From the NCBI GenBank assembly GCA_963666735.1, contig OY762926.1:3264001-3328000 (forward strand): a stretch of 64,000 nucleotides of DNA, in the 5' to 3' direction. The notes beneath the pieces are model-generated. The model was not told the origin of the DNA. It ran no database searches and was given only the letters and a program-made list of their open reading frames with translations. This document shows, one piece after another, positions 8,193-11,610 of this stretch (position 1 is the stretch's first letter; the number at the start of each line of letters is the position of its first letter). This DNA is from Gemmatimonadota bacterium (GTDB lineage: Bacteria > Gemmatimonadota > Gemmatimonadetes > Palauibacterales > Palauibacteraceae). Both the position numbers and the translations under genes were made by a program.

Positions 8193-8240
8193 TTGCATTC
8201 TAGTGTGCCATCCTGTACCATGCCGTGCCAGCACGTACCG
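8193..8240 (+). promoter_or_regulatory. Sigma70-type promoter overlapped by four 10-bp-phased direct repeats (putative operator)
   Basis: TTGCAT (8193-8198), 17 bp spacer, TACCAT (8216-8221). GTRCCR at 8205, 8215, 8225 and 8235. Confidence 0.65.
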
Positions 8241-8254
8241 ACACGGTGGACATT

Positions 8255-8497
8255 GTGACGATTCAGCTTGGTGGGACAACCTATTTTAGAATCGGCGAGG
8301 CTCTTGACCGAGCTGGCGTCAGCCGGTCGACGTATTTCCGGTGGGTCCGCGACGGGCGAATCGAGGATGCACGATATCGAGACCGGAACGGTCGTCGAGT
8401 TCTGACAAGTAGCGAAGTCGATTCCCTGTGCCAGGTGAGCAACCGCGTGATCGTCGCCGCGCCGGACCCGCGTCAGACGCGCCTTGAGCTCGATTAG
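8255..8497 (+). CDS. Small MerR/Xis-like helix-turn-helix protein, putative R-M controller
   Basis: YFRIGEALDRAGVSRSTYFRWVRDGRI...RDRNGRRVLT. Start uncertain (GTG 8225/8246/8255). Confidence 0.8.
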   Translation: MTIQLGGTTYFRIGEALDRAGVSRSTYFRWVRDGRIEDARYRDRNGRRVLTSSEVDSLCQVSNRVIVAAPDPRQTRLELD

Positions 8498-8509
8498 GAT
8501 TACTGGGCC

Positions 8510-8930
8510 ATGGCCGACGTCGTTACTCCCGAGAAACGCAGCTGGATCATGCGTCAGATTTCGGAAAAGGATACTCGCCCGGAACCTGCGCTGCGAAAGC
8601 TGTTACATCCACACGGTTATCGCTTCAGGCTCCACCGGAGCGACCTGCCCGGCAAACCGGACATCGTGCTTCCGAGATACCGGGTCGTGATTTTTTTACA
8701 TGGGTGCTTTTGGCACGGGCATGAATGCCAAAAGCGACGACGCCCCAAGACAAATAGAGATTACCGGAACAAGGAGCTCGCTAGAAATGTGGAACGAGAT
8801 CGGACGACGCAAGAAGCCTGCAAGGAAGTCGGCTGGAAGCCAATCGTAGTGTGGGAGTGTGGACATGAAACGTAATCCTCGTGAGGTGTTGGATCGCATC
8901 ATAGTAGATCTCCCAAGGGTGGGGACTTGA
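8510..8930 (+). pseudogene. vsr: Very short patch repair endonuclease Vsr, probably frameshifted near the 3' end
   Basis: ADV..PEKRSWIM, DLPGKPDIV, FLHGCFWHGH, VVWEC. The frame stops at 8875; the +1 frame from 8862 continues DMKRNPREVLDRII...TGA 8930. Confidence 0.8.
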
Positions 8931-9892
8931 CCTATCGGGTCGCATCCCTGTTCTCGGGGATCGGGGGCTTCGATCTTGGCTTCGAGCGTGCCGGGTTCGA
9001 AGTCACGTTTCAGTGCGAGATTGACAAGTTTTGCAGCTCAATTCTTCGACAACACTGGCCGGATGTGGAGCGACATGAAGATATCAGAAACGTCCAGGAC
9101 TCAGACATCCCTATTTCCGACGTTTGGGCAGGCGGATTCCCCTGCCAGGACGTCTCAGTGGCGCGAATGGGGCCGCGAGCTGGGCTTAGGGGGAGACGAT
9201 CTGGACTCTTTTTTGAGTTTTCTCGACTCGTTGAGACAGGTCGCCCCAGAGTTGTTGTCATCGAGAACGTGCCGGGTCTCCTCTCTTCCCATGGAGGCCG
9301 AGACTTCCGAATCGTTATTCAAACTCTGGCCTCGTTCGGGTATGGCGTGGGATGGCGGGTGCTTAACAGCCGGTACTTCGGAGTCCCCCAATCGCGGTCG
9401 CGAGTCTTCATTGTCGGATGCGATCGTGACCGGCGAGGTCCCGCAGAAATACTTTTTGAGTCCGAATGCAGCGCGGGGAATCATCAGAAGAGTCGACCGA
9501 ATGGGAAGAAACCTGTTTCGCCCTTTAAGAGAAGCATTGGAGATCTTGGCAAAGGACCCGTGACTCCGGCCCTTGCATACTGTCTGTATGCCTGTTCGGC
9601 GCGGCACACCGGTACGGATTGGAGCAGGAACTACGTGAGCTACCCGGACGGCCGCGTACGACGCTATATGCCGCTAGAGGCAGAGCGGCTTCAGGGGTTT
9701 CCGGATGGTTGGACGATTCCGGAAGCTGCGGGCTCCCCAGCCGCCGATCCCGATTCTCCACGTTACCACGCACTCGGTAACGCCGTGACGGTCCCCGTAG
9801 CTGAGTGGCTTGCTCGGCGAATCGAAACCTATTTGATGGCGTCTGGGGATCGCGCCCGCTCGCCGGAGTTTGCGTTAGCTCCTGTGGTATGA
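8927..9892 (+). CDS. DNA (cytosine-5)-methyltransferase
   Basis: Motifs I (LFSGIGG), IV (GGFPCQ), VI (ENV), VIII (PQSRSRVF), IX (RRYMPLEAERLQGFP) and X (GNAV). TTG start. Confidence 0.95.
   Translation: MTYRVASLFSGIGGFDLGFERAGFEVTFQCEIDKFCSSILRQHWPDVERHEDIRNVQDSDIPISDVWAGGFPCQDVSVARMGPRAGLRGRRSGLFFEFSRLVETGRPRVVVIENVPGLLSSHGGRDFRIVIQTLASFGYGVGWRVLNSRYFGVPQSRSRVFIVGCDRDRRGPAEILFESECSAGNHQKSRPNGKKPVSPFKRSIGDLGKGPVTPALAYCLYACSARHTGTDWSRNYVSYPDGRVRRYMPLEAERLQGFPDGWTIPEAAGSPAADPDSPRYHALGNAVTVPVAEWLARRIETYLMASGDRARSPEFALAPVV
9075..9563 (+). CDS. Overprinted +1-frame ORF inside the methyltransferase (M.EcoHK31I beta-polypeptide-like)
   Basis: Frame open 8976-9563 in an AT-richer gene. GTGGAG RBS just before ATG 9075. 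Contains WPRSGMAWDG...ESP...SSLSDAI..GEVPQKYFLSPNAARGIIRR. Confidence 0.7.
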   Translation: MKISETSRTQTSLFPTFGQADSPARTSQWREWGRELGLGGDDLDSFLSFLDSLRQVAPELLSSRTCRVSSLPMEAETSESLFKLWPRSGMAWDGGCLTAGTSESPNRGRESSLSDAIVTGEVPQKYFLSPNAARGIIRRVDRMGRNLFRPLREALEILAKDP

Positions 9893-11059
9893 TTCGTAAT
9901 AAAGACTGAGCAACCGAGGGTCGGGTCGATCCTCTCTTCTTGTGGGAAACCGGTCGGCTGGTATCGGGCCCGTGTGCTTGAGCAGGCTGACGACCCCGAA
10001 GGTCGGACACTCACTCCTAAGTGTAGCGACCGCATCCTCCGGGACCTCCAGGATGTAGCTGGCACCATCCCAAGTCAGGACCAAGAGGCCCTCGTCAAAC
10101 GCCCAGTGATGATGCTTACACAGGCAGAGCCCATTTGCAATGCCGTCGAGGTCATAATCTGCCCACGGGAGGATATGGGCGGCGTCTACTCCGGCAACCC
10201 GATTGACGGACGTGCGGGGATAACGGTGCCCACACACGACACAAGTCCAGTCGTAAGCAGCGCGAACGTCTTGCCGAAAACGGGCACTGGCCGCTCCGCG
10301 TGCAGCTGCCCAGCGGCGCCACTCACGGACCGTTCGGCGACGAAGCTCTAGCTCGCTAGGGTCTATCTCGTCCACGCGTACGGGAGGCTCCGGGGGTACC
10401 TTGGCCAAGTCTAAAGTTTGGAGGAGATCAGGTACGACATCCTCTCGCCCCTGCCGATAAATCCGAAAGTCCGGCCCTAGTTCTGAGAGTTGATCTTGGA
10501 GGTCGGTTATGATTTGCTCTCCGCGTAGAGGGACTGGCGTTCCGACCGTCACAAGGTCCCTATGTGCGCGGAGCAGTCGCGCGATGTCTTCAGGCAATTC
10601 ATCTGTACAAGCCCAAAGTTGTCTTAGGTTTTGAATGCGATCTGCATAGCCCAACAGTTCAGCGTGCAGGTTGTAATTGCGAAGAATAATATCGCTAATC
10701 GCCACTGTGACACGGCCGGGGCCATGAAGAACTACGCGGCCTAGCTCAATGTGCTCGATAGCGTATCGCTCGGACAGGAGAATAGGTCGTCCACTACCCA
10801 GAGCATCGTCTGCTCGAACTGGAGAAGGCATTAGGAGAGATGCTGCGATCTGGCGGTGAAGATGAATCGACGCATCTTGGATGCGGAGCCTCTTCTTACC
10901 CCCCTGGCTAGTAAGTACTACGCCGGAATCGATCACCCAGTCGCTATCGAATGCGACATGAAAGCGCCGCCCTATGACGTCGGTTGGAGTGACGTTCCCG
11001 TGATTCTCGCTCAACTCGTATTCGCCCCGGCCCCCGCTTGTGCGGCGCGAAATCCTCAC
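9875..11059 (-). CDS. HNH endonuclease, putative cognate restriction endonuclease
   Basis: C-terminal CVVCG...DAAHILPW...NGLCLCKHHHWAFD (HNH_2 type). GTG start at 11059 with GGAGGG RBS. Convergent with the MTase. Confidence 0.85.
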   Translation of the reverse strand: MRISRRTSGGRGEYELSENHGNVTPTDVIGRRFHVAFDSDWVIDSGVVLTSQGGKKRLRIQDASIHLHRQIAASLLMPSPVRADDALGSGRPILLSERYAIEHIELGRVVLHGPGRVTVAISDIILRNYNLHAELLGYADRIQNLRQLWACTDELPEDIARLLRAHRDLVTVGTPVPLRGEQIITDLQDQLSELGPDFRIYRQGREDVVPDLLQTLDLAKVPPEPPVRVDEIDPSELELRRRTVREWRRWAAARGAASARFRQDVRAAYDWTCVVCGHRYPRTSVNRVAGVDAAHILPWADYDLDGIANGLCLCKHHHWAFDEGLLVLTWDGASYILEVPEDAVATLRSECPTFGVVSLLKHTGPIPADRFPTRREDRPDPRLLSLYYESYHRS

Positions 11060-11223
11060 GTTGTCCCTCCGGCAGCATTCTTCGGTGTGTGGGGCACGGA
11101 AGGTCGGCGTAAACCAAGCACCGCACAAGGGGGGATGCAGGGCGGAGCGGACACCGGGCATGGATTGGCGACGGGACGAATGTGTGGGATGTCTCCGGTT
11201 GCGGGGATGTGCGTGGAGTGACG

Positions 11224-11610
11224 TCACGAAGGGGGTGAAGACGTTGCCCGTCCGGAGCTGATCGCTTCGAGCTTCCTGCGCACCCGCTCTACCCTCCGCC
11301 GGTTCACCCCGAAATCGAACAGGCCGACGCGCGAGGTCGACCTTACATGGGCGACGCCGTCCGACGGACACCACCGAAACTCGAGATCATCGCGGAATCC
11401 GAGGCGGGTTCGGCAGACCGCGTGCAGGTGATCGCGCCTCGCCGTGACGATCTGGGTGCGTGGCATGGCGGCCACGACGTCCCGAAGGTGACGAAAGAGT
11501 GTGGCCGGGTCTCCCGAAGTGTGAAACGGTGCCACCCGGTGGATCCACCACTCACCGGGTTTGCTGCTCACATGGTCGTGCCTGAGCCGTCCGAAACGGG
11601 CGTGTCCCAA
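11224..11610 (-). CDS. DUF1499-like protein, possibly N-terminally degenerate
   Basis: LHAVCRTRLGFRDDLEF...HVRSTSRVGLFDFGVNRRRVE matches the DUF1499 C-terminal pattern. Confidence 0.65.
   Translation of the reverse strand: MGHARFGRLRHDHVSSKPGEWWIHRVAPFHTSGDPATLFRHLRDVVAAMPRTQIVTARRDHLHAVCRTRLGFRDDLEFRWCPSDGVAHVRSTSRVGLFDFGVNRRRVERVRRKLEAISSGRATSSPPS

Follow-up and report, generated by a model that had tools for sequence, protein, structure and literature searches.

A conserved +1-frame gene nested within a cytosine-5 DNA methyltransferase gene and its likely role as a second enzyme subunit

Introduction

The stretch of DNA considered here (the window) comprises 64,000 nucleotides from a Gemmatimonadota bacterium (GenBank assembly GCA_963666735.1, contig OY762926.1, positions 3,264,001 to 3,328,000) and carries a gene for a cytosine-5 (C5) DNA methyltransferase (MTase), inside which a second open reading frame (ORF) runs in the +1 frame. 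Is this nested ORF a gene, and, if so, what might its product contribute to an enzyme whose main frame appears to hold every motif it needs? An earlier note, made from the sequence alone, had taken the ORF for an overprinted gene. In what follows the main-frame product is called alpha and the nested product beta.

M.HhaI-like monomeric C5 MTases are known as single chains. Enzymes of two chains have also been described. M.EcoHK31I (recognition sequence YGGCCR; Escherichia coli HK31) has a beta chain whose coding sequence lies entirely within the alpha gene, in a different frame (PMC2836561); its alpha chain contains motifs I-VIII, motif X as well as the target recognition domain but lacks motif IX, which is carried by beta (PMC2836561, PMC3404938). 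When beta is shortened by approximately 41-42 N-terminal residues, association and in vitro activity are lost (PMC2836561, citing Lee et al. 1995 and Fung et al. 2006). M.AquI is a further two-chain C5 MTase (PMC3404938).

We consider it probable that the +1 ORF of the window is a real, translated, overprinted gene, that its product of ~18 kDa binds alpha, and that the enzyme is thus an alpha/beta pair of the M.EcoHK31I kind. The evidence is set out below, and alternative explanations are weighed where the data bear on them.

Results

Stop depletion and boundaries of the nested frame

According to the ORF list and three-frame translation, the +1 frame is free of stops from 8931 to a TGA at 9561-9563. 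Its earliest TTG, at 8976, would give a product of 195 aa, and ATG codons follow at 9063 and 9075, the latter giving 162 aa. The ORF from 9075 to 9563 lies wholly within the alpha gene (8927-9892), in another frame. The +2 frame contains nine stops over the nested span, and the +1 frame itself contains five in the 93 codons that follow it. The extent of the open frame, the GGAG and ATG at its start and the length of the product had all been described accurately in the earlier note.

To ask whether the open frame is more than chance, we turned to homologs. Eighty homologous loci were fetched from Acidobacteriota, Planctomycetota, Chloroflexota, Actinomycetota, Pseudomonadota, Bacteroidota and other groups, and 78 were used for a test of stop frequency, one near-duplicate (L031, of L029) and one truncated locus (L080) being left out. 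Genes were aligned by protein, and the null expectation was taken from 100 synonymous shuffles per gene, which preserve both the protein and its codon use. Over codons 61-210 (150 codons) two +1 stops were observed where ~245 were expected, while in codons 1-60 and 212-321 the number of +1 stops was 1.1 to 2.2 times that expected. In the +2 frame 795 stops stood against 834 expected. The +1 stops that do occur cluster at the ends of the ORF, at codons 53 and 56 before it and at codons 212, 213 and 216 after it.

The same pattern was found in a second clade, made up of 16 relatives of the MTase of Caulobacter phage DMCA, the alpha chain of which is 42% identical to that of the window. These were the loci, among 80 of viral origin, that aligned in one piece, starting no later than residue 12 and ending no earlier than residue 235, had no in-frame stop and were not duplicates. 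One +1 stop was seen over codons 61-210 against ~52 expected, with normal flanks. Both clades thus possess an alternative frame kept nearly free of stops, with defined boundaries, beyond what a codon-preserving null produces, as is expected of dual-coding genes.

Selection on the nested product

Conservation of the +1 product follows the same boundaries. Pairwise +1 identity over codons 60-211 is 0.55, compared with 0.27 for the shuffle null (z ~200); in the flanks it is 0.28 against 0.27 (codons 1-56) and 0.27 against 0.26 (codons 213-305). Since +1 identity exceeds the null inside the nested ORF and equals it on either side, the synonymous sites of the MTase are constrained only within the ORF, and synonymous constraint and conservation of the alternative product are both confined to the overlap. 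Stop avoidance and synonymous constraint among homologs were among the checks that the earlier note had proposed for its idea, and both came out in its favour.

Towards the end of the overlap the nested frame is the better conserved of the two: over codons 171-210 identity in the +1 frame is 0.62-0.75, above the 0.33-0.63 of the main frame, and over codons 181-190 the figures are 0.75 and 0.33. The impression that the MTase frame resembles a linker here, also recorded in the earlier note, is borne out by these values; the stretch is variable, yet it is anchored by ILFE.E, SPFK and GP in an alignment of 27 homologs. The corresponding C-terminal segment of the beta consensus (YFLSPNAAxGILRRADRMGRNLFPPLRxALEIL) is nearly invariant. 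Elsewhere in beta W85, S88 and G89 vary little or not at all, and R138/R139 form a nearly invariant basic pair.

These results bear directly on the most sceptical explanation, that there is no second gene and that the open frame simply follows from G+C content, codon use or the conserved MTase protein. The gene is 58% G+C, and strongly conserved alpha motifs determine the N-terminal half of the +1 product (FPCQDVS in alpha, for example, being read as SPARTS), as this explanation would have it. However, shuffles that preserve protein and codons yield ~245 stops where two are seen, both the regions beyond the ORF and the +2 frame lack any depletion, synonymous constraint is found only inside the ORF, conservation of the +1 product peaks where that of alpha is lowest, and the second clade repeats the depletion. 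We give this explanation next to no credence. A chance ORF due to G+C content in particular is ruled out by the stop depletion together with the conservation of the +1 protein. Also ruled out was a frameshifted pseudogene with the +1 stretch as its ancestral MTase frame, the main frame being colinear with thousands of homologs throughout the overlap.

The comparison of homologous genes shows the frame, the ATG and the protein sequence of beta to be under purifying selection across phyla.

Start of the nested gene

The start chosen for beta is an ATG in 73 of 79 sequences (the window included), mostly at main-frame codon 57-59, and a Shine-Dalgarno (SD)-like tetramer lies at most 20 nt upstream of it in 57 of the 79, a raw count taken without a shuffle control. 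A conserved start and ribosome-binding site, as expected of a dual-coding gene, are thereby present. The window has no ATG at codon 58 and has one at codon 46 or 50 instead; eight homologs could use an ATG at codon 50 and four at codon 46.

We also observed that the +1 frame of the window is open over the first 48 MTase codons (8931-9074), where most homologs have +1 stops at codons 53-57. The N-terminus of beta may be longer in the window, starting at TTG 8976 or ATG 9063.

The openness of this upstream stretch raises a second alternative, in which the +1 frame is reached by ribosomal frameshifting and the N-terminus of alpha, with motif I, is fused to the beta domain. An early shift would read through in the window, as the frame is open from 8931. 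In two viral contigs motif I lies in the frame of the beta domain, and two database proteins (P0185, P0214) have motif I with a beta domain after it. Most homologs, however, have a +1 stop at codon 53-57 followed by the conserved ATG and SD-like site, and we regard frameshifting as very unlikely. The preferred reading is that beta would be translated from its own SD sequence and ATG on the alpha mRNA.

The two viral contigs deserve separate mention. Both are diverged (L087:1496-2566 and L089:2174-3687), with motif I in the frame of the beta domain and motif IX, and motifs IV-VIII and X in the other frame. They may represent either an interleaved two-chain enzyme or a translational frameshift.

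The main-frame enzyme and its motif IX

Alpha matches PF00145 (Pfam, 1e-63) and aligns with M.HhaI over two stretches, residues 4-167 (motifs I-VIII) and 239-300 (motifs IX-X), so that motifs I-X are found in order in a single chain. Its variable region is ~22 residues shorter than that of M.HhaI. Colinear full-length homologs number in the thousands: among 8000 scored candidates, 7997 reached E ≤0.001, and the best 120 were 65-81% identical. In the 27-homolog alignment the invariant columns include G11-G14, P72-C73-Q74, E113-N114-V115, Q155-R157-R159, R245...W262 and G284-N285.

The position of motif IX is of particular interest in view of the role of beta in M.EcoHK31I. In the window it begins 96 nt past the nested stop, in the alpha frame, and every motif, IX and X included, is likewise in that frame in each of the 27 aligned homologs. 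The earlier note was therefore right to place motif IX in the main frame downstream of the nested ORF and to conclude that the nested product is not its donor. A further idea, that beta supplies in trans the element following motif VIII in monomeric C5 MTases, to which its LSD..E..VP.KYFLS segment bears a likeness, was dropped: beta gave no match to PF00145, and the variable region of alpha falls short of that of M.HhaI by no more than the residues given above.

Predicted alpha-beta complex

Complex modelling of the two chains, which the earlier note had put forward as a check, gave scores of 0.83, 0.84 and 0.83, whereas the best of three controls scored 0.00. Of 157 solved complexes 116 reach the mark used in calibrating this score, as do 2 of 215 mismatched pairs; this calibration holds only roughly here, as alpha and beta were supplied with their own, unpaired alignments (A1 and A2, respectively). 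Contacts agreed between runs to at least 89%, and the pLDDT (predicted local distance difference test) of the partner was at least 77. The model thus predicts association of alpha and beta.

The contacts of lowest predicted error join beta 88-91 (SGMA) to alpha 141-145, the strand of motif VII. In the usual topology of such MTases this is an edge strand of the catalytic sheet. A second contact pairs beta 126-128 (YFL) with alpha 244-246, the strand leading into motif IX. The SGMA strand would accordingly be added to the exposed edge of the catalytic sheet, and YFL and the C-terminal helices would pack on the strand into motif IX; because the contacts fall at alpha 141-145 and 244-246, beta is predicted to act as a brace between the large and small domains. 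The basic pair R138/R139 does not figure among the residues named for the predicted interface and may face the DNA. The model also fits the deletion data on the beta chain of M.EcoHK31I (PMC2836561), as the deletions end at the SGM segment, the best-scored contact.

We take a brace-like second subunit to be the most likely role of the nested product. The earlier note had listed a structural subunit, or an evolutionary intermediate of split MTases, among its possibilities, and the conserved coding frame together with the predicted binding to alpha speaks for them.

Relationship to M.EcoHK31I and other two-chain enzymes

The supplement of PMC2836561 lists plasmids M38 and C23 and primers for truncation of beta. 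The plasmid names imply EcoHK31I chains of ~38 and 23 kDa, with a beta similar in size to that of the window. Translated singly, the M.EcoHK31IB forward primers give WSNSGMA, GMAFRGE, EEECTLSQVL and SQVLETCAP, and the reverse primer ends in NWTLIDSEQ. All four forward-primer stretches match the core of the window's beta, WPRSGMA ... ESSLSDAIVTGEVP, and the motif of the family, W.xSGM..G... E.SLS..xE..xP. The NWT stretch is typical of the end of motif IX. Since the primer stretches match the nested domain and the end resembles motif IX, beta chains of the EcoHK31I type appear to consist of the nested domain plus motif IX.

Two complete gene pairs served as proxies. The viral contig L088 has the EcoHK31I layout: its alpha frame contains motifs I-VIII and X without IX, and in its +1 frame the nested domain is followed by VRRLTPTECETLQGFPKGWT and a stop. 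Over 116 aa its beta shares 46% identity with that of the window (E 5e-25); its alpha is also 46% identical to the window's, and that alignment fails at motif IX. Streptococcus phage MM1-1998 (orf13/orf14, GenBank DQ113772, labelled 'C5 methyltransferase alpha subunit' and 'beta subunit') has the layout of the window, with a 141-aa +1 ORF nested in a 385-aa MTase and motifs IX and X in the main frame; over 80 aa its beta shares 40% identity with that of the window (E 3e-14), although it lacks the C-terminal basic helix region (GILRR...ALEIL), and its alpha belongs to a distant clade. The 'beta subunit' label is a database annotation, and a literature search that covered few subscription journals returned no paper testing it.

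Together, the primer-derived stretches and the two proxies show beta to be homologous to the N-terminal docking part of EcoHK31I-type beta chains. Absence of any likeness to the EcoHK31I beta chain, which the earlier note would have counted against its reading, was not found; the likeness concerns the docking part, as seen in the primer stretches and the L088 proxy. The layouts themselves differ. The beta chain of EcoHK31I ends just after the motif-IX-like NWT, whereas in the window beta ends ahead of motif IX, which is present in alpha and absent from beta. Nor does the M.AquI arrangement apply: the second chain of M.AquI contains motifs IX-X together with half the variable region, while the window's beta carries no canonical motif, and both IX and X are in the alpha frame.

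A split resembling that of M.AquI was noted elsewhere, in four viral contigs (L097, L101, L102, L103) with motifs IX and X in the +1 frame relative to motifs IV-VIII. Their second chain may begin with the nested domain.

A role outside the enzyme, and points against a subunit

A third alternative accepts that the nested ORF is translated and conserved and denies that its product is an MTase subunit. Beta might instead regulate the restriction-modification (RM) cassette, timing methylase against nuclease, or have the HNH nuclease or Vsr as its partner. The Vsr - MTase - HNH cassette is indeed conserved (HNH in 69 and Vsr in 45 of the 80 loci), the C-terminus of beta is basic and helical, and alpha holds all ten motifs. 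On the other side, MTase genes of phages and plasmids carry the same nested ORF amid other neighbours and without such a nuclease (MM1, Omega, P1-like dmt and the Caulobacter phage), the complex model places beta on alpha through a large and reproducible interface, and the EcoHK31I homolog is a chain of the enzyme itself (PMC2836561). We hold a role of this kind to be unlikely, although less so than frameshifting.

Several observations nevertheless count against beta as a subunit of the MTase. Firstly, alpha has the full motif set and might methylate alone. Secondly, the complex model used unpaired alignments, and beta folded alone has a mean pLDDT of 66.9, with 45 of 162 residues below 50, and is confident only at ~110-160, which is helical (pLDDT >90 within 126-160). 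A Foldseek search of beta against the PDB gave three rows, all with E ≥8 and meaningless, and a profile from the beta alignment had no match among PDB sequences at E up to 10. Thirdly, neither Pfam (searched with the 195-aa form starting at TTG) nor NCBIfam gave a family for beta. Fourthly, the start is not universal: the ATG is missing from its usual place in 6 of the 79 sequences, and in L065 and L070 a +1 stop falls at codon 78, with GTG at codon 85 as the only possible restart. Finally, the link to M.EcoHK31I is based on short primer stretches and proxies.

Distribution and annotation

The 195-aa ORF was compared with 1.84 billion representative proteins and gave 1790 matches at E ≤0.001, 293 at 1e-10 and 10 at 1e-30, many of them 'proteins' of 150-220 aa without a Pfam family. 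A tblastn search with the 162-aa product matched 139 phage and 205 plasmid records. Six were inspected (phage MM1-1998, mycobacteriophage Omega, a Brucella plasmid, an Agathobacter phage, a Pantoea P1-like dmt gene and Caulobacter phage DMCA), and in all six the match lies in the +1 frame of an annotated C5 MTase gene, with the frame open for 159-221 codons. In five of them alpha alone is listed and the nested ORF is unannotated, MM1-1998 being the exception. Residues 51-131 of the window's beta match PHROG family phrog_16143 ('DNA methyltransferase', 139 positions) at E 1.1e-10, and the L088 beta matches it at 2e-16. Searching a protein atlas with beta returned solely 'hypothetical protein' clusters, mostly viral. 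As far as these sequence searches reach, the nested ORF is conserved in many bacteria and phages and almost never annotated.

Two of the inspected genes have unusual structures. In Mycobacterium phage Omega (L082:1158-2462) the MTase is annotated as two consecutive same-frame genes, gp127 and gp128, the first of which holds a nested beta-like ORF of 159 codons; three chains may be made. The Pantoea P1-like plasmid (L085:1891-4524) has a large 'Dam family' MTase gene whose N-terminal C5 part holds a beta-like +1 ORF of 166 codons, and similar tblastn matches were obtained in 147 Escherichia plasmid records.

Locus and neighbouring genes

The features of the locus are collected in Table 1. The 499-aa protein with the HNH_2 domain is presumed to be the restriction endonuclease of the cassette; it also resembles, below threshold (2.1e-14, 53 bits, cut-off 180), the NCBIfam model of a phosphorothioated-DNA-binding restriction endonuclease. 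The small helix-turn-helix (HTH) protein is a possible controller. Among the 80 related loci the HNH homolog, where present, adjoins the MTase, and a homolog of the HTH protein occurs in seven. The cassette (HTH, Vsr, MTase and HNH; 8200-11400) is, like the MTase gene, 58% G+C, compared with 68% for the whole window, which suggests an acquired island.

In five loci (L022, L054, L058, L064, L072) the open frame of the MTase runs upstream of motif I into an HTH-like stretch (ITLKRWLL.GK...). This resembles the separate HTH protein of the window and may be a fused controller.

Table 1. Features of the methyltransferase locus (positions within the window)
Feature	Position	Strand	Remarks
Small HTH protein	8225..8497	+	Weak MerR/HTH_17 matches, under Pfam cut-offs
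Vsr very-short-patch repair endonuclease, upstream neighbour of MTase	8510..8875	+	Pfam PF03852, 5.9e-33
Alpha chain, C5 DNA cytosine methyltransferase, 321 aa, TTG start	8927..9892	+	Motifs I-X all in main frame
GGAG, Shine-Dalgarno-like	9066..9069	+	5 nt ahead of ATG 9075
Beta chain, nested +1-frame ORF, 162 aa and TGA	9075..9563	+	Alternative ATG 9063
Alpha motif IV, catalytic P72-C73-Q74	9140..9148	+	Beta frame reads same bases as SPAR
Beta residues 85-91 (WPRSGMA), predicted strand pairing with alpha strand 141-145	9327..9347	+	Complex model
Beta residues 126-160 (YFLSPNAARGIIRR...ALEILAK), most conserved part	9450..9554	+	Overlies variable stretch of main frame
Alpha motif IX (RRYMPLEAERLQGFPDGW), R245-W262, outside nested ORF	9659..9712	+	M.HhaI and homolog alignments
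Alpha motif X core (GNAV)	9776..9787	+	M.HhaI and homolog alignments
499-aa protein, C-terminal HNH_2 domain, convergent with MTase	9875..11374	-	Pfam PF13391, 2e-12

Discussion

An MTase alpha gene with a nested beta was already known from M.EcoHK31I, and one phage record and one PHROG family bear labels of this kind. Our literature search, with its limited coverage of subscription journals, turned up no paper presenting the nested domain as widespread, as conserved without motif IX or as being under dual-coding selection, which is weak evidence that these properties are unpublished.

The layouts compared above suggest an order of events. In the window and in the MM1 and DMCA clades, motifs IX and X share the alpha frame, as they do in ordinary C5 MTases, while EcoHK31I-like genes differ by frame changes before and after motif IX. 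The window layout is for this reason the likelier ancestor, and it is probably close to the ancestral form of the EcoHK31I kind. Two frame changes would have given motif IX to a pre-existing beta frame in EcoHK31I-type genes, and it is the pre-existing frame that would have let motif IX stay expressed afterwards.

More broadly, a large share of phage-type C5 MTases, in bacteria, plasmids and phages, may be obligate alpha/beta enzymes with an ancient overprinted beta, from which EcoHK31I, and perhaps M.AquI, were derived by frame changes that handed over motif IX (or IX and X). We offer this as a tentative generalisation, its chances falling a little short of even. If true, it would take in the P1-like dmt genes, mycobacteriophage Omega and thousands of chromosomal RM systems. 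Recoding such a gene, by codon optimisation for instance, would then silently destroy the enzyme, which would explain failed expression from recoded genes. The role of the EcoHK31I beta chain would shift from that of a donor of motif IX to that of a docking or brace domain with or without motif IX. Should beta prove to be needed, many 'single-chain' cytosine MTase genes would encode two proteins, one of which annotation has missed. The nested ORF would in that event stand as a deeply conserved bacterial case of same-strand overprinting, with a testable route to the split MTases.

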